DNA of 32,000 bases from Fibrobacter succinogenes subsp. succinogenes S85 (GCF_000146505.1 NC_017448.1:630001-662000), one strand, 5' to 3'; positions 931 to 17,856 are shown, numbered from the stretch's first letter. Made by a program: numbers and translations. The notes: generated from the sequence alone by a model not told the origin.

Positions 931-980
931 GCATTCAATTTCTTGAATAACGCCCCTACAAGCCATAGCTTTTTTGTATT

Positions 981-1003
981 AGCCAAGCATTAACTTGGCT
1001 TTT
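981..1003 (+). terminator. Rho-independent terminator
   Basis: AGCCAAG-cattaa-CTTGGCT 7-bp stem followed by TTTaTaTTT. Confidence 0.5.
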
Positions 1004-1049
1004 ATATTTGTCACCAAAATTCAACAAGTTCAATGACGGTAGTTTAAGA

Positions 1050-2039: not shown

Positions 2040-2058
2040 CCACTGAACAGGTCGCTTA

Positions 2059-2655: not shown

Positions 2656-2741
2656 TAGTCTGATATAGCATTTTCTTTTTGAAGTAACAAATTATTGGGA
2701 ATAAAATATTACTATCATTCTCAATAAGAAGGAATTTCACT

Positions 2742-3767
2742 ATGAATCTGCATTTTTTCAAGACAGTTTTTGCAGTGGCGCTGGTGGCGGGCGCGGGTTG
2801 TTTTTTCGGTTGCTCTTCGGAGAAGGCTCCCGAGGTTGAGAACAACACGCTTGTCAATGTGTCTTACGATCCGACGCGTGAGTTCTATTCCAATTACAAT
2901 CATATTTTTATGAAGCATTGGAAAGAGGCTACCGGCAAGGATGTGAAAATTACGCAGTTTCATGGCGGTTCGGGCAAGCAGGCGCTTGAGGTGGTGAACG
3001 GGCTTGAAGCGGATGTGGTCACGCTCGCGCTGGAATACGACGTGAACATTGTCCGTGACGCAGGGCTTATTGAAAACGGCTGGGTCAAGGAATTTCCACG
3101 CAACAGCGCTCCTTACACTTCGACGATTGTGTTTCTCGTGCGCAAGGGGAATCCCAAGAAAATCAGTGACTGGAACGATCTCGTGAAGGACGGCATCGGC
3201 ATCATCACGCCAGATCCCAAAACTTCGGGCGGTGCGCGCTGGAATTATCTTGCGGCTTGGGCTTATGCAGAAAAGCAGTTCAACGGAGATGAGGAGCAAG
3301 TCAAAGGTTTCATGAAGAAGCTTTATCAAAATGTTCTTGACCTCGCTTCGGGCGCACGCGGTTCAACAAATACATTCATAGAAGAACGCAAGGGCGATGT
3401 GCTGCTTTCTTGGGAAAACGAGGCATTCCTTTCGCTCAAGGACTACCCCAAGGATTACGAAATCGTGATGCCGAGTGTGAGCGTTTTGGCAGAGCCTTCT
3501 GTCGCGATTGTAGATAAGATTGTAGACAAACGCAACACGCGCAAACTTGCGACGGAATACCTGAATTATCTATACTCTGACGAAGCGCAGCATGTTGCGG
3601 CAAGGCATCATTACCGTCCGACAAACAAGGCGATTCTTGACGAGTACAAAGAATTTGACCAGAATGTCAATCTGATTACGATTGAGCATTTTGGCGGTTG
3701 GGAAAATGCACAGAAGACGCACTTTTCCGAGTATGGGATTTTCGACCAGATTTACGAGAAAAATTAA
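2742..3767 (+). CDS. sbp: Sulfate/thiosulfate ABC transporter substrate-binding lipoprotein (Sbp/CysP type)
   Basis: 341 aa. Signal peptide with lipobox FFGC. The blocks SYDPTREFY, HGGSGKQA, TPDPKTSGGARWNYLAAW and NEAFL are characteristic of sulfate-binding proteins. No cysTWA permease or ATPase genes are adjacent. Confidence 0.85.
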   Translation: MNLHFFKTVFAVALVAGAGCFFGCSSEKAPEVENNTLVNVSYDPTREFYSNYNHIFMKHWKEATGKDVKITQFHGGSGKQALEVVNGLEADVVTLALEYDVNIVRDAGLIENGWVKEFPRNSAPYTSTIVFLVRKGNPKKISDWNDLVKDGIGIITPDPKTSGGARWNYLAAWAYAEKQFNGDEEQVKGFMKKLYQNVLDLASGARGSTNTFIEERKGDVLLSWENEAFLSLKDYPKDYEIVMPSVSVLAEPSVAIVDKIVDKRNTRKLATEYLNYLYSDEAQHVAARHHYRPTNKAILDEYKEFDQNVNLITIEHFGGWENAQKTHFSEYGIFDQIYEKN

Positions 3768-3973: not shown

Positions 3974-5203
3974 ATGGATTTTAATACGACTTTATTGCAT
4001 CATAATTTTGAAAGTGAACGAAGTACCGGCTCTACGCTTACCCCTATTTATCAAGTCAGTGCATTTTCGCAAGAATCCGCAGAGAAACTCGAAGCTGTTT
4101 TTAACAATAGGGCTCCGGGTTTTGCATATACGCGCATTGGAAACCCCACGACAGATTCTTTCGAAAGGCGCATTGCATCTCTTGAAAAGGGCATTGGCGC
4201 CATAGCCTGCTCGTCGGGCATGGCTGCCGTGACGATGTCGCTCTTGAACATTTTGCAGTCCGGCGACGAAGTTATTGCAAGTACGGCATTGTTTGGCGGC
4301 ACGATCGACTTGTTCCACGATTTGGAAGCATTCGGCATTAAAACCCGTTACGTCACAGAAGTTACCGCTGAGAGCGTTCGTTCACAATTGAGCGATAAGA
4401 CCAAGGCAGTTTTTACAGAACTTATCGGCAACCCGAAACTCAATGTCGTTGATATTCAAAGCGTTGCAGATGTCGCACACGAAGCAGGCGTCCCGCTGAT
4501 TGTCGACAGCACGACGGCAACTCCTTACCTTGTTCATCCTTTTGATTTTGGCGCAGATATCGTTGTCCATTCCTCTTCCAAGTACATCAATGGAAACGGC
4601 AGTGCCATCAGCGGCATCATCGTCGATAGCGGAAAATTCAAGTGGGATTACACCAAATACAAGGGCTTGGAAGAATACAAGCGCTTTAGCAAGTTTGCGT
4701 ACCTCGCAAAGCTCCGCAACGGAGTCTGGCGCAACATTGGTTGTTGTCTCGCACCCGCTACCGCATTCCTCAACTCGCTCGGGCTTGAAACTCTCGGGCT
4801 CCGCATGGAACGCCTTTGCGATAACGCTTTGCAGCTCGCTGAATTTTTGCAGGGTTTCGAAGGCATCAAGGTCAACTACCCCGCATTGAAGGGCAATCCC
4901 TATTACGATCTCGTTCAAAAGCAGTTTAACGGCAAGGGCGGCGCCATCATCTCGATTGACGCAGGCTCCAAAGAAAAGGCTTTCAAGCTCATCAACAACT
5001 TGAAATACGCTACAATAGCCACGAACATTGGCGACTTGCGCACACTCGTCATCCACCCGGATAGCACGATTTTCACGCACAGTACCAAACTGCAAAAAGA
5101 AAACGCAGGCGTGTTCGAAGGTTCCATCCGCATCAGCGTAGGCATTGAAGATATTGCCGATCTCAAGGAAGATTTCGAACAAGCTATAAAGCAGATTTCG
5201 TAG
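3974..5203 (+). CDS. metY: O-acetylhomoserine sulfhydrylase (Cys/Met-metabolism PLP enzyme, MetY type)
   Basis: 409 aa. Blocks PIYQVSAF, YTRIGNPT, LFGGT and GADIVVHSSSKYINGNG (PLP lysine). IVDSGKFKW is typical of OAH/OAS sulfhydrylases. Confidence 0.85.
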   Translation: MDFNTTLLHHNFESERSTGSTLTPIYQVSAFSQESAEKLEAVFNNRAPGFAYTRIGNPTTDSFERRIASLEKGIGAIACSSGMAAVTMSLLNILQSGDEVIASTALFGGTIDLFHDLEAFGIKTRYVTEVTAESVRSQLSDKTKAVFTELIGNPKLNVVDIQSVADVAHEAGVPLIVDSTTATPYLVHPFDFGADIVVHSSSKYINGNGSAISGIIVDSGKFKWDYTKYKGLEEYKRFSKFAYLAKLRNGVWRNIGCCLAPATAFLNSLGLETLGLRMERLCDNALQLAEFLQGFEGIKVNYPALKGNPYYDLVQKQFNGKGGAIISIDAGSKEKAFKLINNLKYATIATNIGDLRTLVIHPDSTIFTHSTKLQKENAGVFEGSIRISVGIEDIADLKEDFEQAIKQIS

Positions 5204-5234
5204 CTATTAACCATTGACTAATAACTAACGACCA

Positions 5235-5302
5235 TATAGAAAATTTCAATAACTCAGCATAAAAATTAAGTATTGGACAAGTTAAAAAACGCGTTCTATA
5301 TT
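5235..5302 (+). promoter_or_regulatory. Conserved promoter/operator module, copy 2 (upstream of tusA-like gene)
   Basis: TATAGAA 5235-5241, TTGGACA 5273-5279, TTCTATATT 5294-5302. Nearly identical to copy 3 across about 70 nt. The leader ends in GTACGGAGA before ATG 5334. Confidence 0.5.
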
Positions 5303-5333
5303 TAGCATCAAAATTAAAGTACGGAGATAAAAA

Positions 5334-5582
5334 ATGTCAGAAGAAATTAAAGTAGACGATACCGTCGACGTCACCGATGTCAAATGCCCCACTACATTTG
5401 TCAAGGCTAAAGTCGCTATCGAAGAACTTGACGAAGGTCAGATTCTCGCAATCCGCCTGAACGACGGCGAACCGGTGCAGAATGTGCCGCGCAGCCTCAA
5501 GGAAGAAGGTCACGAAATCCTCAAGCTCAACGACAATCAGGACGGAACCTTTACACTCTTTGTGAAAAAAGTCGGGGACTAA
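5334..5582 (+). CDS. tusA: TusA/SirA-family sulfurtransferase
   Basis: 82 aa. Conserved D-V-x-C-P active-site cysteine motif (DVKCPTTFVKAK). The size and pattern fit the TusA family. Confidence 0.8.
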   Translation: MSEEIKVDDTVDVTDVKCPTTFVKAKVAIEELDEGQILAIRLNDGEPVQNVPRSLKEEGHEILKLNDNQDGTFTLFVKKVGD

Positions 5583-5594
5583 CCCCAAAAGGCG

Positions 5595-5615
5595 ATCCCG
5601 GAATAAATCCGGGAT
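5595..5615 (+). other. Perfect 8-bp stem-loop between tusA and the carrier gene (no T-run)
   Basis: ATCCCGGA-ataaa-TCCGGGAT, followed by GACAG and no U-tract, so not an obvious terminator. It shares a GGATGACAG word with 22702-22710. Confidence 0.5.
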
Positions 5616-5654
5616 GACAGCGAAAACAATTTAAACAAAAAAGGAATTTCAAAC

Positions 5655-5861
5655 ATGATTATTACCGTAGTTGGAAACAAGAAAGAAGTTAAAGACGGCC
5701 TCACCGTCGCAGAACTCATTGAACAAGAAAAGGTAGAAACGCCGCAGTACGTGACCGTTTCCGTGAACGATGAATTTGTCGAAAACGGAAATTTCGCAAC
5801 TACCGCCCTCAAGGACGGCGACAACGTCGAATTCCTCTACTTCATGGGAGGTGGTCAGTAA
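5655..5861 (+). CDS. ThiS/MoaD-family ubiquitin-like sulfur-carrier protein with one residue (Gln) after the diglycine
   Basis: 68 aa with a ThiS-like pattern (..LKDGDNVEFLYFMGGGQ*). The stop TAA overlaps the ATG of the E1 gene (TAATG at 5859-5863). Confidence 0.8.
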   Translation: MIITVVGNKKEVKDGLTVAELIEQEKVETPQYVTVSVNDEFVENGNFATTALKDGDNVEFLYFMGGGQ

Positions 5862-6670
5862 TGGCTTTTACTAACGAACAACTCGAACGCTATTCCCGCC
5901 ACATCATCCTCAAGGAAGTGGGTGCAAAGGGCCAGAAGAAGCTTTTGAACGCCAAGGTGCTCGTCATTGGCGCAGGTGGCCTCGGTGCTCCTGTCGCTAT
6001 GTACCTCGCCGCCGCAGGCGTTGGCACCATTGGCATTGCCGATGCAGACGTCGTTGACCTTTCCAATTTGCAGCGCCAGATTATCCATGCTACAAAGGAC
6101 GTGGGTAAGCCCAAGGTGCAGTCCGCCAAGGAAACGATGGAAGCGATGAACCCGGATGTCAAGGTGATTACGTATCACACGTTCGTCACTAGCGAAAACA
6201 TCATGGACCTCATCAAGGATTACGATTTTATCATTGACGGAACCGACAACTTTCCGGCAAAGTTCCTCATCAACGACGCTTGCGTCATGGCCAAGAAGCC
6301 GTTCTCTCACGCGGGCATTATCCGCTTCCAGGGGCAGCTCATGACGTACGTTCCGGGTCAAGGTCCGTGCTACCGCTGTGTTTTCAAGGAACCCCCTCCG
6401 AAAGATGCCGTGCCGACTTGCAAACAGGCAGGCGTGATCGGCGCTATGGGCGGTGTAATCGGTAGCCTCCAGGCGATGGAAGCCATCAAGTACATTCTCG
6501 GTGTCGGCAATCTGCTCACGGGCTACTTGCTCACCTACAATGCGCTCACGATGGAATTCCGCAAGATCAAGCTCCCGACGCATACGAAAGATTGCGCAGT
6601 CTGCGGTGACCACCCGACGATTGACCATCTGATCGACTACGAACAAGCCGTCTGTGAGATGAAGCACTAA
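5861..6670 (+). CDS. ThiF/MoeB/HesA-family E1-like adenylyltransferase (no rhodanese domain)
   Basis: 269 aa. YSRHIIL, the nucleotide loop VIGAGGLGAP, DxDxVxxSNLQRQ, and two CxxC pairs (CYRC, CAVC). Confidence 0.85.
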   Translation: MAFTNEQLERYSRHIILKEVGAKGQKKLLNAKVLVIGAGGLGAPVAMYLAAAGVGTIGIADADVVDLSNLQRQIIHATKDVGKPKVQSAKETMEAMNPDVKVITYHTFVTSENIMDLIKDYDFIIDGTDNFPAKFLINDACVMAKKPFSHAGIIRFQGQLMTYVPGQGPCYRCVFKEPPPKDAVPTCKQAGVIGAMGGVIGSLQAMEAIKYILGVGNLLTGYLLTYNALTMEFRKIKLPTHTKDCAVCGDHPTIDHLIDYEQAVCEMKH

Positions 6671-6679
6671 GGAATTTCA

Positions 6680-7090
6680 ATGATTACAATTTCAAAAGAT
6701 GATTATCAAAAAATCCTGGAGCATGCCCAGAAGAACCTCCCCGAAGAGGCTTGCGGGCTGATAGCCGGGAAAATTGAGGGGAACGACAAGCACATTGAAA
6801 AGGTCTATTTGCTCACGAACATAGACCATTCCAATGAGCACTTTTCGCTTGACCCCAAGGAACACTTAGCCGCCATCAAGGATATGCGCCAAAACGGCCT
6901 ATCCCCGCTTGGTAACTGGCATTCCCACCCCGAGTCCCCGTCGCGCCCGTCGCAAGAAGACAAGCGCCTCGCTTTCGACAGCAAGGCTAGCTACTTGATT
7001 CTTTCGCTGATGGATCGTGAAAATCCGGTGCTCAATTCGTTCCATATCGAAGGCGACAATGCCACGAACGAAGGCTTGGTAATCGGGTAA
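6680..7090 (+). CDS. JAMM/MPN+ metallopeptidase (Mec+/HcyD/CysO-hydrolase type), paralogue 1
   Basis: 136 aa. Upstream catalytic Glu (EEACG) and a complete JAMM motif HSHPESPSRPSQED (H-x-H-x7-S-x2-D). Confidence 0.85.
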   Translation: MITISKDDYQKILEHAQKNLPEEACGLIAGKIEGNDKHIEKVYLLTNIDHSNEHFSLDPKEHLAAIKDMRQNGLSPLGNWHSHPESPSRPSQEDKRLAFDSKASYLILSLMDRENPVLNSFHIEGDNATNEGLVIG

Positions 7091-7169: not shown

Positions 7170-7550
7170 ATGATGGCCAAATATAGTAAAAACATTTATG
7201 AACAAATGGTTTTAGCAGCCAAAAAAGCATATCCGAACGAATGCTGTGGCATTTTGGTGGGTAAAAAGTCCGAACAGAGCGAAATCGAAGTGACCGAAAT
7301 TCGCGAAGCCGAGAACCAGTTTCAAGGGCAGAAAGCAGTCCACTTCAAAATAGACCCGCTATATCTTTACCACTTGGAGCAAGAACTTGATCCGCGCGGT
7401 CTTGAAATTGTCGGCATTTACCATTCACACCCCGACTGCCCCGCCATTCTCTCCAAAGAAGACGAAAAATACATGGTTCCTGGCCTCGAATACGTCATCA
7501 TGTCCGTGCAAAACGGCGAAGTCGTGGATGTGAAAAGCTATAGGAAATGA
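7170..7550 (+). CDS. JAMM/MPN+ metallopeptidase, paralogue 2
   Basis: 126 aa. NECCG Glu motif and JAMM motif HSHPDCPAILSKED (H-x-H-x7-S-x2-D). Confidence 0.8.
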   Translation: MMAKYSKNIYEQMVLAAKKAYPNECCGILVGKKSEQSEIEVTEIREAENQFQGQKAVHFKIDPLYLYHLEQELDPRGLEIVGIYHSHPDCPAILSKEDEKYMVPGLEYVIMSVQNGEVVDVKSYRK

Positions 7551-7583: not shown

Positions 7584-7761
7584 TCATTCTTGCTAACGGT
7601 AGATTGCAAAATTTAAGCAGTTTCCGTTTTTCGTGATTATCGTTTGTAGATTTACCTCAAACATAAAAATGAGGTCTAAAAGGATAATGTCTAGCAACAC
7701 CAAAGTTCACACTCAAGGGAAAAAATATATTTTAATGGAGTCTGTTTTTCCGGAGGCTTTT

Positions 7762-7989
7762 ATGACATATTCTGAAATTGAAGAAAAAATCAGAAAAGTG
7801 CCTGAGGAATATCTTGCCATCATCGACGCCTTTATCGACGGATTGATGATTCAGCATCAAATGAAAAAGAAACCATCCGATGAATTAACCGCCGCCATCA
7901 AAGAAAGCGAAGCCATGCTCAACGATCCGAACGCAAAGAAGTTCGATTCCGTAGATGCTCTATTTGCTGATCTTGATGCGGAGGAATAG
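7762..7989 (+). CDS. Type II antitoxin (RelB/DinJ-like partner of YafQ)
   Basis: ATG 7762 is preceded by GGAGG (7752-7756). The product is a 75-aa acidic protein ending ..KKFDSVDALFADLDAEE. Its stop TAG is immediately followed by the toxin ATG. The listed start 7633 lacks an RBS and adds an implausible N-terminus. Confidence 0.6.
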   Translation: MTYSEIEEKIRKVPEEYLAIIDAFIDGLMIQHQMKKKPSDELTAAIKESEAMLNDPNAKKFDSVDALFADLDAEE

Positions 7990-8265
7990 ATGGCATATCA
8001 AATCGAATACACCTCTCGTTTCAAGAAAGAATACAAATTGGCAAAAAAGAGGGGACGCGACATAAATTTGTTGCGAACCGTCATTGAGATTCTTGCAAAA
8101 GGCGAGCCTCTCCCAGAAAAATACAAGGACCATCCACTGGTATCTAATTGGAGCGGATATCGCGAATGCCATATTCAAAGCGATTGGTTGCTGATTTACA
8201 AGTACAAGGACAATGAACTCATTTTGAGTTTAACAGCAACAGGCTCACATAGCGATTTATTCTAA
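7990..8265 (+). CDS. yafQ: YafQ/RelE-family type II toxin (mRNA interferase)
   Basis: 91 aa. FKKEYKLAKKRG, PLPEKYKDHPL.G, WSGYRECHI.DWLLIY, and a terminal H..L(F) pattern typical of YafQ toxins. Confidence 0.8.
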   Translation: MAYQIEYTSRFKKEYKLAKKRGRDINLLRTVIEILAKGEPLPEKYKDHPLVSNWSGYRECHIQSDWLLIYKYKDNELILSLTATGSHSDLF

Positions 8266-8273
8266 AACATTTA

Positions 8274-8298
8274 GGGCAGCCCAAAGCTGTCCGTTTTT
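8274..8298 (+). terminator. Rho-independent terminator after the TA pair
   Basis: GGGCAGC-ccaaa-GCTGTCC (one G-U pair) followed by gTTTTT. Confidence 0.55.
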
Positions 8299-8330: not shown

Positions 8331-8398
8331 TATAGAAAAAATCAATAAGTTCGCATAAAAATTAAGTATTGGACAAACGCGTTTTTACGTTCTATATT
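8331..8398 (+). promoter_or_regulatory. Conserved promoter/operator module, copy 3 (upstream of Ubl-E1-rhodanese gene)
   Basis: TATAGAA 8331-8337, TTGGACA 8369-8375, TTCTATATT 8390-8398. A longer leader carries GTACGGA twice (8439, 8461) before GTG 8475. Confidence 0.5.
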
Positions 8399-8474: not shown

Positions 8475-9953
8475 GTGAGAATTTATATATCAGCAACCCT
8501 TAGGAATTTCTTCGGGAAAAACGCGCAAGTCAGCGTCCCCGAAAACACGGTTAGAAAGGCTCTCGCCAATTTAATAAGTACTTATCCAGAAGGAGAAAAA
8601 GTCCTTTTTGATGAAAACAACAAGCTCAGAAGTTTCATCAAGATCTACCTCAATGGCAAGAATTTGAACGTCGATACACTCTGGGACGCCACACTTGAAG
8701 ACGATTCCGAAATTTTGCTTTTGCCCGCCATCGCAGGCGGCGCACCGATTGAAGAATCGCAAAGCAAACACGTCGAAAGCTTGATTTCTGACGAAAGACG
8801 CAAGGAAGTCGCTTTTGACGATAGCGAAATTGAACGCTTCGGCAAGCACCTGATGCTCAAAGACATCGGCGTCAAGGGCCAAAAGCGCATCAAGGCCGCA
8901 AAAGTCGTCGTCATTGGCGTTGGCGCACTCGGCTCTCCGGTGATCCAGTATCTCGCCGCCGCAGGCGTTGGCACCATCAAGGCCATCGACTTCGACGAAG
9001 TCTCGCTCGAAAACTTGCAAAGCCAGGTATTGCACGGCACACGCGACGTCAAGCGTCCGAAGGTCGCCTCAGCAAAGGACAAAGTCAAAAACATCAACAA
9101 GAATATCGTCTTTGAAGCCGTCAAGGAACAGCTCGACGCATCGAACATCGAAGCCGAAATTGAAGGCTACGATCTCGTTATTGACTGCACGGACAACTAC
9201 AAGGCTCGCTACCTGATCAACGACGCTTGCGCTCTGCACGGCATTCCGCTTGTGTTCGGCGCGATTTACCAGTTCGAAGGCCAAGTCGGCATTTTCAACT
9301 TGGATGGCGGTCCATGCTTGCGTTGCCAATACCCATCCCCTCCGCCGGCAGGGCTCATCCCCTCCTGCGCAGAAGGCGGCGCCATCAGCCCGCTCCCGGG
9401 AATCATCGGCAGCATCCAGGCAAACGAAGCGCTCAAGCTCATCTTGGGAATCGGTGAACACCTGAACGGCAAAATTCTCCACGTGGATAGTTTGTACTTA
9501 TCTTCGAGAATTTTCAAGGTCGAACGCGATTGCCATTGCCCGATTTGCGGTAACAATCCGACAATCACAAACGTCGAAGATATCGACTACGAAGACCTTT
9601 GCGGATTGAAGACCACAAACGAAACGCCTGTGGAAGGATTCACGCCCGAAGAACTCGCCAAGCGCATCGACAACGGCGACGACATCACAATTGTTGACGT
9701 CCGCGAGCCGCACGAACGCGCGATTTTGCGTTTCCCGAACGCCATCGTGATTCCAATCGGACAGCTCGTTCGCAGACAAAAGGAACTCGATCCAAATAAG
9801 GATACGATTTTCATTTGTAAACAAGGCAAGCGTAGCGAACTTGCCATCAACACATTGCGCGAAGCGGGCTACACCGGTCCTCTGTACAACTTAAAGGGCG
9901 GTATCGACGCAATGAAGGACATCATGTTCTCACACGAAGGCGCTTGGTTATAA
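8475..9953 (+). CDS. Triple fusion: MoaD/ThiS-like Ubl domain (internal GG), ThiF/MoeB E1 domain and rhodanese domain
   Basis: 492 aa. Residues 1-89 are beta-grasp-like and end LLLPAIAGG (GG codons 8736-8741). A linker follows, then the E1 domain (VIGVGALGSP, SLENLQSQ, CLRC and CPIC). The C-terminal rhodanese has the active-site loop FICKQGKRS (Cys codon 9816-9818). GTG start with RBS GGAG. Confidence 0.85.
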   Translation: MRIYISATLRNFFGKNAQVSVPENTVRKALANLISTYPEGEKVLFDENNKLRSFIKIYLNGKNLNVDTLWDATLEDDSEILLLPAIAGGAPIEESQSKHVESLISDERRKEVAFDDSEIERFGKHLMLKDIGVKGQKRIKAAKVVVIGVGALGSPVIQYLAAAGVGTIKAIDFDEVSLENLQSQVLHGTRDVKRPKVASAKDKVKNINKNIVFEAVKEQLDASNIEAEIEGYDLVIDCTDNYKARYLINDACALHGIPLVFGAIYQFEGQVGIFNLDGGPCLRCQYPSPPPAGLIPSCAEGGAISPLPGIIGSIQANEALKLILGIGEHLNGKILHVDSLYLSSRIFKVERDCHCPICGNNPTITNVEDIDYEDLCGLKTTNETPVEGFTPEELAKRIDNGDDITIVDVREPHERAILRFPNAIVIPIGQLVRRQKELDPNKDTIFICKQGKRSELAINTLREAGYTGPLYNLKGGIDAMKDIMFSHEGAWL

Positions 9954-10108
9954 CGTAGGGCTTTGAATAGGGAAAAGCTATGTCAAAAAAATTTTTCGAC
10001 AAGGGCAGATTTTCGTAACAACAAAATAAGCTTATTATTTTCTAACATTCACATCTAAATACTAGGAAAATAGTTTTAAACACAACTAACAATAAGAGGT
10101 AAACCATT

Positions 10109-11071
10109 ATGGCAAATGAAGCAGAAAAGAACACGGGCATTAATGCCCTCGGCGCCAAGGCCGCTTACAACCTGGCGAACGTCACCAAGACCAAGCCGCA
10201 ATTTGGCGCGCTCACGCCCAAGTGGCTCACCAAGTTCCTTGAATTCAAGGGTCTCGAAACAGGTCTTTTCCGCGTGAACAAGGTCGTCGAAGGCCAGACA
10301 CCGCTCGACGTTCTTTGCAGCGCTACCAAGAAGTCCGATATCATCCCGGAAGGCTACGTCGAATACGAAACCGAACCGCGCGAATACAAGCTCAACTCCA
10401 TCTCCACGATCATCAACGTCAACACCGCTATCGAAGACGTTTACAGCTCCCCGTATGATCAGGTTCAGGAACAGCTCGGTCTCGCTATCGAATCTCTCCG
10501 CGAACGTCAGGAAAGCCAGCTCATCAACAACGATGACTACGGTCTCTTGAAAAACATCGCTGACTCTCAGCGCATCCAGCCGCTCCGTGCCGATGGCCGC
10601 CCGACTCCGGACGATCTCGATGAACTCATTTCGAAGGTTTGGAAGGAACCGTCCTTCTTCCTCGCCCACCCGCGTGCTATTGCCGCATTCGCCCGTGAAT
10701 GCACCCGCCGTGGCGTGCCGCCTGTCGTTGTAGACCTCGCCGGTAGCAGATTCCTCACCTGGCGCGGCATTCCTCTCGTTCCGACCGACAAGCTCCTTGT
10801 CGATGGCGTGAAGAACCCGAAGTCTCAGGGTGGCAAGACCAACATCTTGCTCGTCCGTACTGGCGAAGCCAAGCGCGGCGTTATCGGTCTCTTCCAGGCC
10901 GGTCTCAAGAACGAACACTCCCGTGGCCTCTCTGTGCGTTTCCGCGGTATCGACAACAAGGGCGTTGCATCTTACCTCTTGTCTCTGTACTGCTCTGCCG
11001 CAATTCTCGCAGACGACGCTATCGCCGTGTTAGAAGATGTCGAGGTTGGCGAATACTATGACTACGAATAA
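10109..11071 (+). CDS. Family 2A encapsulin shell protein (SrpI-like, no cNMP-binding insertion)
   Basis: 320 aa. Long conserved blocks recalled from SrpI-type encapsulins: WKEPSFFLAHPRAIAAFARECTRRGVPP, TWRGIPLVPTDK, LSVRFRGI, ASYLLSLYCS. RBS AAGAGG. It sits directly upstream of a desulfurase with a disordered N-terminus. Confidence 0.8.
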   Translation: MANEAEKNTGINALGAKAAYNLANVTKTKPQFGALTPKWLTKFLEFKGLETGLFRVNKVVEGQTPLDVLCSATKKSDIIPEGYVEYETEPREYKLNSISTIINVNTAIEDVYSSPYDQVQEQLGLAIESLRERQESQLINNDDYGLLKNIADSQRIQPLRADGRPTPDDLDELISKVWKEPSFFLAHPRAIAAFARECTRRGVPPVVVDLAGSRFLTWRGIPLVPTDKLLVDGVKNPKSQGGKTNILLVRTGEAKRGVIGLFQAGLKNEHSRGLSVRFRGIDNKGVASYLLSLYCSAAILADDAIAVLEDVEVGEYYDYE

Positions 11072-12800
11072 TCCAGAAACCAGATCGCTGGAAGAACTCG
11101 CCGGAGTTCCCAATGCGGCTGAACTGGAGCAATTGGCAAATGCGTATTTCCCGGATTTGACGGATAGCGCATACGCAGCAACCCCCGCCGCTCCCGAAGC
11201 GCAGAACGCATCTGCCGCTCAGGGAGTCAGTGCAGCTCAGGGTGCCGCAGCCATCAGCCAGACTCCAGCCTTCGACTGGGAACACCCCTTTGCGACCTAT
11301 GGCGACCAGCCGACATCCTCGGCTCCGTTTGCCTATGGCGGAAGTTCTACAGACACCTGGCTCAACACGGTTGAAGCCCCTGCGGTTCCCGAATCGCAGT
11401 TTGCATCGCAGCTGAGCGATATTCCGACAGCCCCCGCACCGGCTCAGGGTTACTCCCCGAAGGTCGTGTCCAAGACGCAGGCTGCCGAAGCTAGCCGCCA
11501 GATCGATGCACCGACTTCTCTCGGTGGCGATTCCGTGAAGACGGGTTCTGCAAACAGCGGCGCAAATTCTCGCAACGATTCCATCCGCATCGGTTCCAAG
11601 ACTCTTGCCCAGATCCGTTCTGACTTCCCGATTCTCTCGAAGCAGATCAACGGTCATCCGCTCGTTTGGCTCGATAACGGTGCAACAACGCAGCGCCCGC
11701 AGGTAGTCATTGACCGCCTCAAGTACTACTACGAAAACGAAAACTCCAACGTTCACCGTGGCGCTCACACGCTCGCGGCCGCATCGACAGACGCCTACGA
11801 AAACGCACGCAACATCGTTCGTGACTTTATCGGCGCTCCGTCCTCGCAGGAAGTTGTTTTCGTTCGCGGTACAACAGAAGCCATTAACTTGGTTGCAAAT
11901 GCCTACGTGAAGCCGACGCTCCAGCCGGGTGACGAAATCATCGTCTCCATTTTGGAACACCACGCCAACATCGTTCCGTGGCAGCTCATTGCCGAAGAAA
12001 CGGGCGCAATCATCAAGGTGATTCCGTGCGATTCTACCGGTCAGCTCAAGCTCCACGATTACGAAGCATTGTTCACGAAGCGTACCAAGTTCGTTTCCGT
12101 GACGCACGTTTCGAACGTGCTCGGCACTGTAACCCCGATTGAAGAACTCATCGCCATCGCTCATAGACACGGCGTGAGAATCCTCATTGACGGCGCTCAG
12201 TCCATCGCTCACATCCCGGTAAACGTTGCAGCCCTCGATGCAGACTTCTTCGTGTTCTCTGGACACAAGGTGTTTGCTCCGACCGGTATCGGCGTTGTCT
12301 ATGGCAAGAAGGAATTGCTTGAAGCAGCAAGACCTTACCATGGCGGCGGCAACATGATTGCGGACGTCACGTTCGAACGCACGATTTACAACGGAATTCC
12401 GAACAAGTTCGAAGCTGGTACCGGAAGCATCGCCGACGCTGTTGGCCTCGGTGCAGCCCTCCAGTACCTCACTGAAATCGGGATGCCGTGCGTATTCCGC
12501 TGGGAACATGAACTGTTGCAGTACGGCCTCAAGGAATTGAAGACTGTCAAGGGTATCCACCTTGTGGGAACCGCACTCAACAAGGCTTCTGCGCTTGCCT
12601 TCAAGCTCGACGGTTATTCCGACGAAGAAGTGGGCAAGAGACTCGACGCATACGGCGTTGCCGTTCGCACCGGGCATCACTGCGCTCAGCCAGTTCTCCG
12701 CCATTTCGGCTACGAAAGTACCGTGCGACCCACACTCGCATTGTACAACTCACCGGATGACATCGACGCCCTCGTAAGAGCGTTGAAGACATTCGCATAG
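11058..12800 (+). CDS. Group II (SufS/CsdA-type) cysteine desulfurase with about 185-aa disordered N-terminal extension (encapsulin cargo type)
   Basis: The catalytic part starts near 11613 (IRSDFPILS..LDNGATTQ). PLP lysine in FSGHKVFAPTG and active-site RTGHHCAQP. The N-terminus is Ala/Pro/Ser/Gln-rich and contains LEQLANAYFP (11124-11153). ATG 11058 (GAGG 12 nt upstream) overlaps the encapsulin 3' end by 14 nt. ATG 11037 is an alternative start. Confidence 0.85.
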   Translation: MTTNNPETRSLEELAGVPNAAELEQLANAYFPDLTDSAYAATPAAPEAQNASAAQGVSAAQGAAAISQTPAFDWEHPFATYGDQPTSSAPFAYGGSSTDTWLNTVEAPAVPESQFASQLSDIPTAPAPAQGYSPKVVSKTQAAEASRQIDAPTSLGGDSVKTGSANSGANSRNDSIRIGSKTLAQIRSDFPILSKQINGHPLVWLDNGATTQRPQVVIDRLKYYYENENSNVHRGAHTLAAASTDAYENARNIVRDFIGAPSSQEVVFVRGTTEAINLVANAYVKPTLQPGDEIIVSILEHHANIVPWQLIAEETGAIIKVIPCDSTGQLKLHDYEALFTKRTKFVSVTHVSNVLGTVTPIEELIAIAHRHGVRILIDGAQSIAHIPVNVAALDADFFVFSGHKVFAPTGIGVVYGKKELLEAARPYHGGGNMIADVTFERTIYNGIPNKFEAGTGSIADAVGLGAALQYLTEIGMPCVFRWEHELLQYGLKELKTVKGIHLVGTALNKASALAFKLDGYSDEEVGKRLDAYGVAVRTGHHCAQPVLRHFGYESTVRPTLALYNSPDDIDALVRALKTFA

Positions 12801-12801
12801 C

Positions 12802-12914
12802 AGGTCGCGTCCTTCGGACGCTTTGAGCGATGAGGTCGCACCTGCGGTGCTTTGGGGTTCTGAGCTATAGCCCATACCTCAGAGGGAGCCGCAGGCGACC
12901 GACCCCATACCTCA
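12802..12914. repeat. Cluster of short hairpin/direct repeats in the desulfurase-cysE spacer
   Basis: AGGTCGC followed by a hairpin occurs twice: GCGTCC-ttc-GGACGC at 12807-12821 and GCACC-tgc-GGTGC at 12838-12850. An inverted GGCGACC lies at 12894-12900. CCCATACCTCA occurs twice (12871-12881 and 12904-12914). Confidence 0.6.
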
Positions 12915-12948
12915 TACCTTATCATTACTTCTTATTTTTCAAAAATCT

Positions 12949-13911
12949 ATGCACGAACTTATCCAAGAATCTGAAGTTGAAAAAGCCGTACAAATTATTT
13001 TTGACGATTACAATCGCGGCAAGCATATCGACAATATCGATATTTACAATCGACCCGACCAGGCCGAAATCCAGACAATTTTGCAGAATCTGATTCGAGT
13101 CGTTTATCCTGGACACTTCAGAGATCGTTCGCATAAGATTTACAATCCCAAGAACAGCTTTGCAGTTCTTATCGAAGATACGTTCTACCACCTTCACAAG
13201 CAGGTGGCGATTGCGCTAGATTACTGCAAATTGCGCGGTTCCATGACCTCGGACGAGCGCAAAATTGAAAGCTATAGAATTTGTAAGGAATTCTTCGCCA
13301 AGATTCCGCAAATCCGCGAATTCCTGGAAACCGATTTACACGCCGCTTTTGACGGCGACCCTGCTGCCGGCTGCCTTGACGAGATTATCCTCGCCTACCC
13401 CGGTCTCATGGCGACAACCATTTACCGCATCGCCCACGAACTTTATCTTTTACACGTTCCGGTTCTCCCGCGACTCATGACCGAATATGCCCATTCCAAA
13501 ACAGGCATCGACATCCATCCGGGTGCAACCATCGGCAAATACTTCTTTATCGATCACGGCACAGGCATTGTGATTGGCGAAACCGCAGTCATCGGCAAGA
13601 ACGTCAAGATTTACCAAGGCGTCACGCTAGGCGCACTTTCAACTCGCGGCGGACAAAAGCTCTCCGGCAAAAAGCGCCACCCCACCATTCAAGACAACGT
13701 CACTATTTACGCGGGAGCATCCATTCTCGGCGGAGATACCGTTGTTGGCGAAAACGCAATTATCGGCGGCAACGCCTTCATCACGCGATCCATTGAGGCC
13801 AACACTCGCGTCAGCCTCAAGAATCTTGAAATGGATTACGTTTCAACCACCAATAGCAAGCACAAGACCGAAGAACTCCAGCAAAGCGACGAGTGGTACT
13901 ATATTATTTAG
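12949..13911 (+). CDS. cysE: Serine O-acetyltransferase (long-form CysE/EpsC type)
   Basis: 320 aa. Left-handed beta-helix hexapeptide repeats (GIDIHPGATIGKYFFIDHGTGIVIGETAVIGKNVKIYQGVTLG) and the SAT N-terminal helical domain. Confidence 0.85.
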   Translation: MHELIQESEVEKAVQIIFDDYNRGKHIDNIDIYNRPDQAEIQTILQNLIRVVYPGHFRDRSHKIYNPKNSFAVLIEDTFYHLHKQVAIALDYCKLRGSMTSDERKIESYRICKEFFAKIPQIREFLETDLHAAFDGDPAAGCLDEIILAYPGLMATTIYRIAHELYLLHVPVLPRLMTEYAHSKTGIDIHPGATIGKYFFIDHGTGIVIGETAVIGKNVKIYQGVTLGALSTRGGQKLSGKKRHPTIQDNVTIYAGASILGGDTVVGENAIIGGNAFITRSIEANTRVSLKNLEMDYVSTTNSKHKTEELQQSDEWYYII

Positions 13912-13977: not shown

Positions 13978-14007
13978 AAAACCCGCACTCGGACGAGCAC
14001 GGGTTTT
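13978..14007. terminator. Bidirectional terminator between convergent cysE and pectate lyase genes
   Basis: AAAACCCG (13978-13985) pairs with CGGGTTTT (14000-14007). This gives an A-run/T-run hairpin usable on both strands. Confidence 0.55.
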
Positions 14008-14027: not shown

Positions 14028-15797
14028 TTATCGAACAGTTATGCGTCGCGCTTCGTTACCGACTCGCAAGAGGTACATGCCCGCACGAGGAACGGTTATC
14101 AAGCTTTCGCGACCCAAAGACTGAACTTTTGTAATCAGCCTGCCCTGGGCATCCAGGAGATACGCCGTTTGCGTAGCACCTTGTACGGTAAGAACTCGAC
14201 CGTTGACAGAAACATTGAAATGCGAAGCAACCGTAGCGACATCCAACGAAGTCGTGCCTTGTTCCGAGCTAGAGCTCGAATCAACTTTGCTAGAACTTGA
14301 TTCAACAGAACTAGAGCTAGACTCTGCAACCGCTCCATTTGCACCAACAACCGTAATAGTTCCGTTCTTGGTCGCATTTGTCGTAGCCCCAGTTGTCGTT
14401 ACGGTAAAATTGTACGCCCCCACAGCAGCATTTTGAGCGACCGTACCTGAGATGTAAAAATCACTACCCTTCATTGTTCCTGAAACACCTTCAGGCAGTC
14501 CCGTAACAGTCGCACCCGTGGCGCCAGCGACAGTAAAGTAAAATTCTTCGATAGATTCACCTTGCTTGACTTCTTGCTTAGCGCTACCCGAGCCGTGCTT
14601 AGTAAGTGTCGCCGTTCCCGAAACAGCCTCCCCCTGCGAGGAACTAGATACAGCCTGCGAGGAGCTGGACTGCGCGACACTGCTACTGGATTTCGCGACA
14701 CTTGAACTAGACACAGCCACGCTGGAACTAGACTGTACTTCGCTCGAAGAAGATGCGGGCGTCACCGTTTGAGATTTTCCCGGATCAGGGAGCGTCGCTC
14801 CTGCGTACAACTTAATGGAATCACGAAGGGCATAAGCCTTTGCCTGCGTACTCACGTCCGTAAGGCTCATGGAATAACTCGGCTTGAACGCCGTGCCCGT
14901 ACCGGCCTGCGGTTTCTTCACGTTTTCTTCGTAATTTTCAATCATTTGCGCCGCCGTGATCGTTCCATCGCTCGTGTAAAGGTCAAGCGCCTTCTGCACA
15001 CCGATAAACACGTTCCTTTCAATGCGGATATCAGCCTCTACTGCCGCACGCACGCAGTAGCTCGCGTTCTTGCTATCGAAGAGGTTGTTCGCCACATGTA
15101 CCTTGCCAAAACGCACACGCGGCATGCGTTCCACCACGCCATCCGCCCACCACGTATGGTGAATCGTGACATTTAGGTGCCCACGGTCGCTCGTCTTTGT
15201 CTTGCTGTTGCCAATCAAGTTGCTGAACTGGTGACCTGTCGATGCAGAGGTGTAACTGAACTTGGTCCAAGAAATCGTCACGTAGTCCGAAGCATTGGTA
15301 ATGTCCAGGTTACCGTCGTGACCGTCATACACGTCGACATGGTCAATCCACACGTTCTTGGATTCGTGATTCACTTGGAGGCAATCTTCATCATCGTCAT
15401 CGTGCGCACCCACACCCTTGAATTTCAGGTTGCGGATGATGACGTTCTTCGAGCCACTCAGTTTCATGGCGCTACCCGAAGCGGGCTGCGCAATGATGGC
15501 GCCCTGGTAGCCGTAAATCGTCACGTTGCTACCGACTTCCACCGGACCCATGTACGTACCCGGCTTCACGTAGATAATCTTGTTGCCCGCCTTGGCGTAG
15601 CTCTTGAGGTCGTTCACGTTGTCAACCGTAACCTCGGAGTAGCCCTTGCCGCCCGTAGTGCCGCCATTCTGCGTGGCAAAACCCGCCATCGGAAAATCCG
15701 GCGAAGTCACCGCAAACGCAGGAACCGCAGCCGTTGTGACAGCCAAAGCCGCGAAAGTTGCGGCCACACGCATCGTTTTAGAAAGCAAATAATTCAT
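14028..15797 (-). CDS. Secreted multidomain pectate lyase (PL1 catalytic domain, Ser-rich linkers, Ig-like module, T9SS-like C-terminal sorting domain)
   Basis: 589 aa with a signal peptide. PL1 blocks GGTTGGKG, DHVDVYDGHDGNLDIT and ERMPRVRFG. Two poly-Ser linkers. The C-terminal ~70 aa (..LLDAQGRLI..GMYLLRV..) resembles Por/T9SS tails. Confidence 0.8.
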   Translation of the reverse strand: MNYLLSKTMRVAATFAALAVTTAAVPAFAVTSPDFPMAGFATQNGGTTGGKGYSEVTVDNVNDLKSYAKAGNKIIYVKPGTYMGPVEVGSNVTIYGYQGAIIAQPASGSAMKLSGSKNVIIRNLKFKGVGAHDDDDEDCLQVNHESKNVWIDHVDVYDGHDGNLDITNASDYVTISWTKFSYTSASTGHQFSNLIGNSKTKTSDRGHLNVTIHHTWWADGVVERMPRVRFGKVHVANNLFDSKNASYCVRAAVEADIRIERNVFIGVQKALDLYTSDGTITAAQMIENYEENVKKPQAGTGTAFKPSYSMSLTDVSTQAKAYALRDSIKLYAGATLPDPGKSQTVTPASSSSEVQSSSSVAVSSSSVAKSSSSVAQSSSSQAVSSSSQGEAVSGTATLTKHGSGSAKQEVKQGESIEEFYFTVAGATGATVTGLPEGVSGTMKGSDFYISGTVAQNAAVGAYNFTVTTTGATTNATKNGTITVVGANGAVAESSSSSVESSSSKVDSSSSSEQGTTSLDVATVASHFNVSVNGRVLTVQGATQTAYLLDAQGRLITKVQSLGRESLITVPRAGMYLLRVGNEARRITVR

Positions 15798-15930
15798 AGC
15801 ACATCCCTTTTTTCTTTAAATTTAAGCCGACGAACCAGAAAACGCATCAAAAAATAGCCCCACACAACTCAAAGTGTCCTCTATAGACAACTCCTTTTTA
15901 ACCGAAAAAAAACGATCCACTCCTTGCACG

Positions 15931-15960
15931 AAAAGGCTTGCCCCCTAAGGAGCAAGCCTT
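15931..15960 (-). terminator. Terminator of the beta-helix lipoprotein gene
   Basis: On the minus strand: AAGGCTTGC-tccttaggggg-GCAAGCCTT followed by TTTT. Confidence 0.45.
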
Positions 15961-15990
15961 TAGTGTTTAGGAGGAAATTCAAGGGAAAGG

Positions 15991-17856
15991 CTATTTTTCG
16001 TAGTAGGTCATGCCATTCGGGAGGGTAACTTCGGTCATGCCGCTCACATCTACCTGGGACACAGAGCTGACTTCACCACCGTAAATAATCATGCTACCAG
16101 AAGAGCTAGGCTTGAAAGCGGCTTTGCTAGAACCATACGCCGTACCAGCCGTGTAGCTTGTAGCAGTGCAATAAGGATACTCTTCGGTTTGGCTTCCGAA
16201 ACCAAGCAACACGCCACCATTGATGCTAAATCCATTGTCCGTGTCAATAAGCCCACCAGCCGTATTCGTGGAGCAAGAGCTAGAGCCGCCCCAGCTTCCG
16301 CCCTGATTACCGCCCTGATTTCCCGAAGCAAACATCGCGCTAGACCTTCCACTAGAACCGATTTCAAGGAGCAAAACGCCTCCGCTCATTGTTGCCGTTC
16401 CATTGGCATCAAGCACATCAATATCGTTACCCGCCGCATAGAGGTAATGGTAACCGCCACTGATAATGATATAACCCTTGGAGCCGCTCATCATGCCAGT
16501 CGGGCCGCCGCGGCCACCCCACTGAGAACCACTCGTTGAGTTGGCATCAGCCGAGCCTCCCGCCGCATTCCAAGCATCATCGCTTGCAACCGTCGCCGTC
16601 TTTCCGCCTTCGGCCCTGATGTAGAACGCTTCAATACCTTCGACAGCCTTGGTGATGTTGATGGAACCATCAGAAATGCGCAATGTTGAATCGGCATGGA
16701 TGCCGTCATCGCCCGCAGAAATCGTCGTGCGTCCACCGTTAAAATAAATGTTCATGTTGGAATGGAGCCCATCATCGCCGGATGTCACGCTAGTTACACC
16801 GCCATTGACGTAAAGGCGGTTATCCGTAGCAATACCTTTTCCCTTGCTGTTCACGGTAATAAGCGGTGTTGAAGTAGAATCTGCAATCAAGATGTAGTTG
16901 TAAGCCTGGATGCCATCATCGCCTGCGTTAATGTTGAACTCACCGCCAGTAATAATCACAATTCCCTTTTCTTCCGTGACTACACCTTCGTCGTCGCCCT
17001 CATCGCTCTTGATTCCATCGCCATTTGTTGCCGTCAGTTCAAAATAACCGCCCTCAATATTTACAGAGCCCTTGCCCTTGATGGCGTGATTTTTGGCCTT
17101 GACCGTAATTTCGGGCAAGTCACGAATGCGCAAATCGTTGCTGCAATGAATTCCGTTGTTGTAGTTTCCGGTTACGGTCAACGCGCCACTACCCTTAATC
17201 GTCAAGTCATCCTTGGCATAGATAGTCGCATTTGTCGTGTCACTGGAACCGTTAGACTTTGTATAAGCTTTTGTGCGGGTCGAAGCATCTTCAAGAGTAT
17301 TCTTTGTCCCATCCACCAACAATAAAAATACCTTGTTCGCATTTTGAACATAAATTGGAGCGTCAGAGGCGCTTGCAAGTTGCAAACCATTCAAGTACAG
17401 ATAAACATTGTCTGTACTCCCAGCGTTAACGATTATTTGGTTGTCGTTCGAACTGCCGGTAAGCTGGTAATTTCCTTGGCAGCTGATGGTAATGGTCTTT
17501 TCATTTTGAGCAATGCAACCATTGTCATTCGAGACCGAAACGGATGCGTTGGTAAAAGTAATAACCGGATCACCAGAAATTTCGGAAACCATTACAGGAT
17601 CCGAAGCAACTTGTTCAATAATGACTTCTTCAGTCGAAGAACTTTGTTCAGTCGACACAGAACTCTGGTTTTCCGCCGTAGAGCCTTGATTGTCTGAAGA
17701 TATTTCCGGATTAGAGACCTCCGTAGTTTCACCGGCAGAATCTGATTCAGCAGCATTCGGGGCAACAACACCCGTAGAATCTACGCTACTATCACCACAG
17801 GCGCAAAGCGTTAGAGCTGCGCACCAAACGATGTTTGATAATTTCAATGTTTTCAT
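15991..17856 (-). CDS. Lipoprotein with repetitive right-handed beta-helix-type repeats; probable carbohydrate-binding protein (Cthe_2159/DUF4353-like)
   Basis: 621 aa. Lipobox LCAC-GD. Ser/Glu-rich linker. Repeated G-D-D-G-I-x-A/S motifs (GDGIKS, GDDGIQA, GDDGLHS, GDDGIHAD) and a Gly-rich stretch. The family assignment is from memory only. Confidence 0.55.
   Translation of the reverse strand: MKTLKLSNIVWCAALTLCACGDSSVDSTGVVAPNAAESDSAGETTEVSNPEISSDNQGSTAENQSSVSTEQSSSTEEVIIEQVASDPVMVSEISGDPVITFTNASVSVSNDNGCIAQNEKTITISCQGNYQLTGSSNDNQIIVNAGSTDNVYLYLNGLQLASASDAPIYVQNANKVFLLLVDGTKNTLEDASTRTKAYTKSNGSSDTTNATIYAKDDLTIKGSGALTVTGNYNNGIHCSNDLRIRDLPEITVKAKNHAIKGKGSVNIEGGYFELTATNGDGIKSDEGDDEGVVTEEKGIVIITGGEFNINAGDDGIQAYNYILIADSTSTPLITVNSKGKGIATDNRLYVNGGVTSVTSGDDGLHSNMNIYFNGGRTTISAGDDGIHADSTLRISDGSINITKAVEGIEAFYIRAEGGKTATVASDDAWNAAGGSADANSTSGSQWGGRGGPTGMMSGSKGYIIISGGYHYLYAAGNDIDVLDANGTATMSGGVLLLEIGSSGRSSAMFASGNQGGNQGGSWGGSSSCSTNTAGGLIDTDNGFSINGGVLLGFGSQTEEYPYCTATSYTAGTAYGSSKAAFKPSSSGSMIIYGGEVSSVSQVDVSGMTEVTLPNGMTYYEK

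Follow-up and report, generated by a model that had tools for sequence, protein, structure and literature searches.

Genes for a Family 2A desulfurase encapsulin, with sulfur-carrier genes beside them, in Fibrobacter succinogenes S85

The stretch of DNA analysed here, referred to below as the window, consists of 32,000 nucleotides (nt) from Fibrobacter succinogenes subsp. succinogenes S85 (GCF_000146505.1 NC_017448.1:630001-662000; positions are counted from its first letter). It contains a gene for a Family 2A encapsulin shell protein, overlapped at its end by a gene for a SufS-type cysteine desulfurase, its presumed cargo; a gene for a fusion protein with ThiS, ThiF, and rhodanese domains precedes these, and one for a serine O-acetyltransferase (SAT) follows (Table 1). 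As an overall explanation of the locus, a Family 2A desulfurase encapsulin operon has in our estimate a probability of about 0.85: the shell, the encapsulated desulfurase, its N-terminal loading domain, and the accessory SAT are all recognizable by homology. Genes for further sulfur carriers, two JAMM-type proteases, and a MetY-like sulfhydrylase lie upstream, and their proposed connection with the encapsulin is more tentative. The sample used for comparison comprised 80 related loci plus three references: the Synechococcus elongatus plasmid pANL, the Aliarcobacter cibarius plasmid pACIB, and an Acinetobacter baumannii record filed under plasmids.

Table 1. Features of the encapsulin locus and its surroundings, by position in the window.
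Feature	Position	Strand	Evidence
Family 2A encapsulin shell gene, 320 residues, HK97 fold, no cNMP-binding insertion	10109..11071	+	Open reading frame table, Pfam, NCBIfam, PDB
14-nt overlap ATGACTACGAATAA; cargo start codon within shell codons Tyr317-Asp318	11058..11071	+	Same overlap in 71/72 clade loci
SufS-type cysteine desulfurase, putative cargo gene, 580 residues	11058..12800	+	Pfam, NCBIfam, PDB, exact match ACX73786.1/WP_012820016.1
Low-complexity N-terminal domain of cargo, about 185 residues, presumed cargo-loading	11058..11612	+	No Pfam/PDB match, composition, variable length
LEQLANAYFP motif, within clade consensus P.A.EL..LAN.LFPDL	11124..11153	+	Cargo residues 23-32 counted from 11058
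ThiS-ThiF(MoeB/MoeZ)-rhodanese fusion gene, 492 residues, the operon's "rhodanese"	8475..9953	+	Pfam ThiS 4-89, ThiF 124-356, Rhodanese 390-480
SAT, EpsC/CysE type, last gene of the operon	12949..13911	+	NCBIfam EpsC 153 vs. cut-off 150; Pfam Hexapep
JAMM/MPN+ metalloprotease JAMM2, proposed to cleave ThiS off the fusion	7170..7550	+	Desampylase model match, HSHx7SxxD motif
Second carrier block	3974..7090	+	MetY-like O-acetylhomoserine sulfhydrylase 3974-5203, TusA-like 5334-5582
Second carrier block, continued	5655..7090	+	ThiS 5655-5861, ThiF/MoeB 5861-6670, JAMM1 6680-7090
Toxin-antitoxin pair, outside the system	7633..8265	+	Putative antitoxin 7633-7989 (no family match), YafQ toxin 7990-8265, Pfam YafQ_toxin E 2e-36

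The shell protein is an exact match to ACX73785.1, named in RefSeq [quoted passage not shown]. The cargo, SAT, TrpA, and aconitase of the window likewise match S85 accessions exactly. It belongs to the Pfam family PF19307 (SrpI-like, E 1.2e-92) and scores 478 bits against the curated NCBIfam equivalog model NF041162 (encap_f2a), above the cut-off of 380. Its best matches in the PDB are the A. baumannii Family 2A shell (8T6R, E 1e-111) and S. elongatus SrpI (6X8M, E 2e-105), with mycobacterial Mmp1 shells also among the top matches (8t6r, 6x8m, and 8wol together span E 1e-111 to 1e-98). The Family 2A structures align to nearly its full length, roughly residues 12-320, and solved Family 2A shells are 53-56% identical to it. 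SrpI residues F262 and Y273, which adjoin cargo density in the structure (PMC8049743), are kept as F278 and Y289. A Pfam search of the 320-residue protein found no match to the cNMP-binding domain PF00027; the Family 2B model scores 367.9, below its cut-off of 400, with only the C-terminal half of the model matched; and Family 2B structures and model align to shell residues of about 65-315 only, leaving the N-terminal part unaligned. By homology, the gene product is a full-length Family 2A encapsulin shell without the cNMP-binding insertion that defines Family 2B. The initial annotation, made from the sequence alone, had reached the same view and had suggested an alignment with SrpI and other Family 2 encapsulins, which bears it out.

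The identification as a Family 2A encapsulin is already in the databases and is not new. The initial annotation had also, provided that its guess at the taxon held, placed the system in an anaerobic fibre degrader, far from the cyanobacterial and actinobacterial examples. Fibrobacter is correct, but the novelty was overstated: Family 2A desulfurase systems have been published from 11-13 phyla, with Proteobacteria in the majority, and RefSeq already names the shell. The main texts of published Family 2A surveys do not mention Fibrobacter, and a literature search returned no paper linking encapsulins with Fibrobacter, the rumen, or thiocarboxylate.

The reading frame of the downstream gene, +1 relative to the shell gene and open from 11037 to 12800, includes a SufS-type catalytic domain. 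Pfam Aminotran_5 covers residues 203-572 of the protein, the TIGR01979 (sufS) score of 536 passes the cut-off of 475, and the closest solved chain is 8KG1, a Mycobacterium smegmatis encapsulin cargo minus its N-terminal domain (E 2e-161), with which the catalytic motifs SGHK and GHHCAQP line up. The first residues of the SufS fold, RSDFPIL, are encoded from nt 11616, in agreement with an earlier estimate that it begins near nt 11613. These comparisons support the identification of the gene as that of the shell's SufS-type cargo, with a long low-complexity N-terminal domain.

Two in-frame ATGs, at 11037 and 11058, precede the stop codon of the shell gene (11069-11071), and both had been considered as starts for the cargo. 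The first is an ATG in only three of about 75 loci (the window and the loci labelled L001 and L002), an in-frame stop occupies its position in other Fibrobacter loci, and GenBank and RefSeq use 11058. An ATG equivalent to 11058, giving a 14-nt overlap, is found in 71 of 72 clade loci; the overlap noted initially is real and conserved, with the second of the two proposed starts and not the first. The cargo ATG is built from the shell codons TAT GAC (Tyr317-Asp318). Tyr317, which supplies its A and T, is encoded as TAT in 73/73 loci; the two Tyr codons flanking it are TAT in 24/73 and 8/73, and the remaining shell Tyr codons are 42% TAT. The 73 loci are related by descent, so that the first of these counts is not a formal probability, but because Tyr317 is always TAT while adjacent Tyr codons in the same sequences vary, a constraint on the ATG itself is indicated. 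On this comparative evidence the cargo start is the ATG at 11058, not 11037, and the overlap is under selection. Synthesis of a shell-cargo fusion by frameshifting was also considered, the cargo being in the +1 frame; the conserved ATG and fixed TAT argue for independent initiation, although a slippery site was not searched for.

Translational coupling, proposed initially from the overlap, is made plausible by its conservation, and would probably mean that the cargo is made when and where the shell is. The overlap might instead simply follow from conservation of the shell C-terminus (..EYYDYE*), with the cargo translated independently and no coupling, which we consider unlikely on balance. It would be compatible with the conservation of YYDY as protein, with the loading of cargo in S. 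elongatus despite a 234-nt gap between the genes, and with the failure to find a conserved strong Shine-Dalgarno sequence ahead of 11058 (the loci vary there between GAGG and the synonymous GAAG). The fixed TAT codon, among neighbours that vary, points to selection on the ATG, though on the start codon only and not on coupling.

A few loci from metagenome-assembled genomes (MAGs) have odd cargo frames: two with a gap of about 370 nt between the end of the shell gene and the cargo frame (L025, 1709-2274; L038, 5562-5952), and one with an apparent frame fusion (L010, 533-2734). Errors of assembly or truncation of the N-terminal domain could explain these. In the window, long antisense open reading frames (ORFs) lie opposite the shell (10076-10918, -, 280 residues), cargo (11019-12704, -, 561 residues), and ThiF (5855-6667, -, 270 residues) genes; the last, the one of the three tested, matched no family. 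All three look more like side effects of codon bias than like genes.

Searches of Pfam and the PDB gave no match to residues 1-184 of the cargo. The composition of the region (19.6% Ala, 12% Ser, 8.7% Thr, 8.7% Pro, 6.5% Gly, and 6% Gln) is consistent with an initial description of it as rich in Ala, Pro, Ser, Gln, and Thr and without a predicted fold; the SAAQGVSAAQG repeats (residues 52-62) and the LEQLANAYFP segment are likewise where that description put them. Disorder-promoting residues make up 62% of the region, vs. 45% of the catalytic domain. Within the clade its length ranges from 89 to 274 residues, with a median of 185, and conservation is confined to short islands: P.A.EL..LAN.LFPDL, FDWEHPFAYGG, YSPKV.S, IDAPTSLGGD, and SSRN.SIRIGSK (SSRN.SIRIGSKTLAQIR). 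A homologue search with the N-terminal domain alone gave 20 matches, mostly fragments. The composition, the range of lengths, and the low conservation fit disorder, and the domain is likely disordered. On a Uversky charge-hydropathy plot it has low net charge and is not discriminated. An AlphaFold2 model of the cargo from a 60-sequence alignment has predicted local distance difference test (pLDDT) values below 50 at residues 1-22 and 34-183; because the entire model is poor (mean 48), this is weak evidence of disorder. A short helix is modelled at residues 20-30, on the LAN motif, the sole ten-residue block of the N-terminal domain above 50.

In the motif LEQLANAYFPDL, A27, N28, F31, and P32 are invariant across an alignment of 60 homologues, and conservation is 90% or more at L26, D33, and L34. 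Its aligned counterparts are IARLANEFF in A. baumannii and IEILSNGYFPEF in A. cibarius, and even the shortest N-terminal domain of the clade (L060, 89 residues) keeps the motif. These alignments support the LANxYF segment as a homologue of the published LARLANEFF motif. The initial annotation had gone further, describing such a motif as needed for loading; this exceeds the published data, because the single-motif tests reported do not establish it. The N-terminal domains as such are necessary and sufficient for loading in relatives (PMC8049743, PMC11659603). In S. elongatus the first 100 residues are partly sufficient and the AASPYYFLDG piece alone is insufficient (PMC8049743), and in M. smegmatis no single motif is sufficient, whereas either half of the N-terminal region is (PMC11659603).

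Residues 71-95 of the S85 cargo (11268-11342) read PFATYGDQPTSSAPFAYGG, against one FDWEHPFAYGG in the clade consensus, as if the second conserved island had been duplicated locally.

Wherever both are present, the shell and cargo genes are neighbours, and the order fusion gene, shell, cargo, SAT is maintained in nearly all 80, with the fusion gene directly upstream of the shell in 75 and SAT kept downstream of the cargo in most. The Pfam matches in the fusion protein include ThiF (E 4e-74) and Rhodanese (E 3e-15); its residues 116-480 can also be aligned with the MoeZ model, at a score of 354, below the cut-off of 647. The ThiS domain ends in PAIAGG, of which (I/V)AGG is at least 95% conserved in 76 homologues, and a short linker follows. 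The rhodanese loop CKQGKR is conserved, with Lys at position 5. A Lys at this position is typical of encapsulin-associated rhodaneses, according to a study from which multi-domain rhodaneses had been excluded beforehand. Operon boundaries enclosing these four genes (8475-13911) fit a promoter-like site at 8370-8398 and terminator-like hairpins at 8274-8292 and, after SAT, at 13978-14007. No riboswitch or other RNA regulator was found in the window at Rfam gathering thresholds.

The fusion gene is immediately preceded by a JAMM gene in 66 of 71 loci, and further upstream there is MetY in 48 of 66, and CysK in some. Both JAMM genes of the window carry the HSHx7SxxD motif. JAMM2 directly abuts the fusion gene except in the window and two other loci (L001 and L004), where the YafQ toxin-antitoxin pair has been inserted between them. 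A second block of carrier genes (ThiS-ThiF-JAMM-TusA) adjoins the encapsulin operon in 54 loci, in 45 of them downstream and in nine upstream. In the window its separate ThiS passes TIGR01683 and ends in GGGQ, one residue past Gly-Gly. The block looks like the HcyS/HcyF/HcyD/MetY thiocarboxylate route to homocysteine in Wolinella. Krishnamoorthy and Begley are said to have found in 2011 that HcyS needs trimming, with which the GGGQ ending of the carrier here may be compared.

Shells 84-99% identical to that of the window were found in Fibrobacter, many Lachnospiraceae, Treponema, Ruminobacter, and one Bacteroides MAG; cultured carriers among the Lachnospiraceae include Pseudobutyrivibrio xylanivorans DSM 14809 and strains AB2028, G41, KH1P17, XBB2008, and V9D3004. 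The cyanobacterial, Acinetobacter, and Aliarcobacter reference shells are only 54-73% identical. Leaving out the single Bacteroides MAG, identities between phyla are 85-95% for the shell, 74-91% for the catalytic domain of the desulfurase, and 54-77% for the fusion protein, and the corresponding ranges within Lachnospiraceae are 86-100%, 72-100%, and 55-100%. Because the between-phyla values overlap those within Lachnospiraceae, this pattern indicates horizontal transfer. A foreign base composition was not seen for the operon, whose GC content of 0.52-0.57 is within the range of 0.38-0.58 for the window. Mis-binning of MAGs as the source of the cross-phylum pattern could be largely rejected: cultured isolates and contigs of hundreds of kilobases to megabases are among the examples from Lachnospiraceae and Fibrobacter, and the flanks seen in Ruminobacter and Treponema (UspE, MCP, TruA, DUF2225) reappear in independent assemblies that bear the same taxon labels. 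The clade consists of Fibrobacter, Lachnospiraceae, Treponema, Ruminobacter, and possibly Bacteroides. What appears to be undescribed is this cross-phylum rumen clade, with its ThiS-ThiF-rhodanese fusion beside JAMM, flanking MetY/CysK, and second carrier set.

Among characterized systems, that of A. baumannii (8T6R; Benisch, Andreas and Giessen 2024, PMC10836720) has the best shell match, at about 55% identity. It shares a SufS-type cargo with a long N-terminal loading domain (in this case Pro/Gly/Ser-rich, with IARLANEFF), a cargo start that overlaps the end of the shell gene (by 26 nt) at the homologous ATGACTAC, and rhodanese and serine acetyltransferase accessory genes. It differs in having a longer N-terminal domain (about 225-260 residues) with PYYFL-type motifs, a small single-domain rhodanese with no ThiS, ThiF, or JAMM, and an aerobic host. 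The S. elongatus SrpI/CyD system (6X8M; Nichols et al. 2021, PMC8049743) has a shell of the same family, 53% identical and with F262/Y273 conserved, and its operon includes CysK, SAT, and rhodanese genes. Unlike in the system here, the shell and cargo genes do not overlap, and the motif occurs twice in diverged form (LEQLTQTVLQDL / LAQLAQAVLQDP); the system is carried on a plasmid of an oxygenic phototroph, where sulfur starvation induces it. M. smegmatis Mmp1/Enc-CD (8WOL, 8KG1; Tang et al. 2024, PMC11659603) provides the closest solved catalytic domain. Its cargo has a disordered N-terminal region of 155 residues with several short motifs, of which single ones are insufficient and larger sub-regions suffice, but the motif set is a different one, and the role proposed is that of shielding the catalytic Cys from oxidation.

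The nearest relative outside the rumen clade is on A. cibarius plasmid pACIB (NZ_CP043858.1), with a shell about 70% identical. The gene order there is JAMM, ThiS (ending GG-I), ThiF-rhodanese, shell, cargo (with a 17-nt overlap), CysE, and CysK. Unlike in the window, ThiS is unfused and the N-terminal domain of the cargo has only about 110 residues. An IS5 transposase gene splits the ThiF-rhodanese gene of the plasmid, and an IS110 element lies between JAMM and ThiS (L082, 2266-4988). The sulfur-carrier arm is probably inactive on this plasmid, where shell, cargo, CysE, and CysK are intact. There is also a likeness to two carrier systems, CysO/MoeZR/CysM/Mec+ of Mycobacterium tuberculosis and HcyS/HcyF/HcyD/MetY of Wolinella succinogenes: both have a ThiS-like carrier with Gly-Gly, an E1-like adenylase that includes a rhodanese domain, a JAMM protease, and a pyridoxal phosphate-dependent sulfhydrylase (MetY/CysK). 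In contrast to the genes here, these systems are without encapsulin and their carrier is not fused to the E1, and the sulfur comes from sulfide or from a non-encapsulated desulfurase.

Work on relatives has reported shells of T=1 symmetry, a requirement of the N-terminal domain for loading, and higher desulfurase activity upon encapsulation, and elemental sulfur accumulates inside the A. baumannii shell. By analogy, sixty copies of the 320-residue protein would be expected to form a T=1 icosahedral shell, with the desulfurase loaded inside by way of its flexible N-terminal domain of about 185 residues, whose short islands (LAN..FPDL, FDWEHPFAYGG, YSPKV.S, IDAPTSLGGD, SSRN.SIRIGSK) would bind the inner shell surface discontinuously. 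The enzyme would convert cysteine to alanine plus persulfide or elemental sulfur, to be retained in the shell. The neighbouring genes suggest a path onward. The adjacent JAMM protease would most likely cut the fusion protein after its conserved Gly-Gly, freeing ThiS; the rhodanese cysteine could accept sulfur from the desulfurase in the shell; the E1 domain could then form a ThiS thiocarboxylate; and MetY or CysK could use this, with O-acetylserine from SAT, to make homocysteine or cysteine. Precedents exist in MoeZR, which sulfurates CysO; in the fused MoaX, active only after cleavage following Gly-Gly; and in W. succinogenes MetY, which takes sulfur from a protein thiocarboxylate. The desulfurase encapsulin of the rumen clade may, then, be one arm of a protein-thiocarboxylate relay, in which stored sulfur is drawn off via rhodanese to ThiS and then to MetY/CysK; this is offered tentatively, with odds somewhat short of even, as the passage of sulfur between encapsulin and thiocarboxylate pathway is suggested by gene neighbourhood.

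Another possibility, although again we would not call it probable, is a stand-alone sulfur store or cysteine-detoxification device of the kind suggested for A. baumannii, to which ThiS, ThiF, JAMM, and MetY are merely co-regulated neighbours, with no hand-off of sulfur. The A. baumannii shell stores elemental sulfur without any carrier protein, according to published work; the well-studied systems have small single-domain rhodaneses, and those of S. elongatus and A. baumannii have no ThiS or ThiF beside the operon; and sulfur genes commonly cluster. Mere clustering is harder to reconcile with a fusion gene that abuts the shell, and a JAMM gene that precedes it, at the frequencies given above and in at least four phyla, despite rearrangement of the other blocks; with the encapsulin-associated Lys at position 5 of the rhodanese loop in the fusion protein; and with the recurrence of an unfused JAMM/ThiS/ThiF-rhodanese arrangement on the A. 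cibarius plasmid. It is very improbable that the desulfurase remains outside the shell, with its N-terminal extension an unrelated low-complexity linker and the shell empty or holding some other cargo. The N-terminal part of the cargo does fall outside the NCBI cargo-model alignment, and AASPYYFLDG is missing, but LAN..FP is invariant in the clade and homologous to the published motif, the closest structural relative of the catalytic domain is itself an encapsulated desulfurase, and the cargo-contact residues of the shell are conserved, as are the adjacency of the two genes and, in 71/72 loci, their overlap. A prophage origin, with the shell gene as a remnant HK97-type capsid gene, can hardly be right: encapsulins share the HK97 fold, but this one passes the curated Family 2A equivalog cut-off and its synteny with sulfur genes is conserved. 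There are no phage genes nearby, the window holding trp, aconitase, glycoside-degrading, and sulfur genes.

Several points nevertheless weigh against an encapsulin operon coupled to sulfur carriers as described. The cargo scores 758.8 on the Family 2A cargo model NF041166, short of the cut-off of 800, and aligns over profile positions 213-622 only, leaving the N-terminal domain outside the model fit; because of this narrow miss, with only the catalytic part aligning, public records say no more than SufS-family desulfurase. The second published motif, AASPYYFLDG, was not found in the cargo, and the clade carries FDWEHPFAYGG and other islands instead. The AlphaFold2 model is poor throughout, an alignment of 60 sequences being too shallow, and the cargo start has the inconstant Shine-Dalgarno region noted above. 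As to function, using the sulfur of cysteine to remake cysteine looks circular unless the shell is a store; the protection from oxidation proposed as a rationale for the mycobacterial system (PMC11659603) is not obviously applicable to a strict anaerobe; and the adjacency of sulfur genes could reflect co-regulation only.

As an identification the locus carries little weight, its shell being already labelled in RefSeq and the family well characterized in three other organisms. What the comparison adds is a start codon with evidence of selection, a clade-specific set of motifs, and a conserved link to a ubiquitin-like sulfur-carrier system. Published work states that it is unknown how stored sulfur leaves desulfurase encapsulins and what part the acetyltransferase of the operon plays. 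The arrangement of ThiS-ThiF-rhodanese, JAMM, and MetY/CysK beside the shell in several phyla suggests a specific and testable exit route, and the relay, if true, would be a concrete answer both to how encapsulin-stored sulfur is remobilized and to what the acetyltransferase is for. The system is present in the cultured type strain S85 as well as in cultured Pseudobutyrivibrio and other Lachnospiraceae isolates. The comparison also shows that desulfurase compartments are common, and mobile, in gut habitats that are strictly anaerobic and rich in sulfide, which explanations based on oxidative stress fit poorly.

Further genes flank the system. Upstream of the sulfur block, at 379-3767 of the window, are genes for a DUF6803 protein, a radical-SAM/BATS protein (ThiH/BioB-like), a LysE exporter, and a periplasmic binding protein of the sulfate/molybdate type; since LysE and radical-SAM genes also follow the block in a Fibrobacteraceae locus (L017, 11521-12939), they may belong to the same module. 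In Treponema loci (L027, 9890-11889), the genes past the acetyltransferase encode, where the ThiS-ThiF-JAMM-TusA block would otherwise be, a rhodanese/MoeB-N-like plus DsrE2-like sulfur-carrier protein and a putative sulfate exporter of the YeiH type. On the other side of the operon, at 14028-17856 (-) of the window, are genes for a pectate lyase with Ser-rich linkers and a C-terminal sorting-type domain and for a carbohydrate-binding protein of the Cthe_2159 family, which is typical fibre-degrading content for Fibrobacter and unrelated to the encapsulin.

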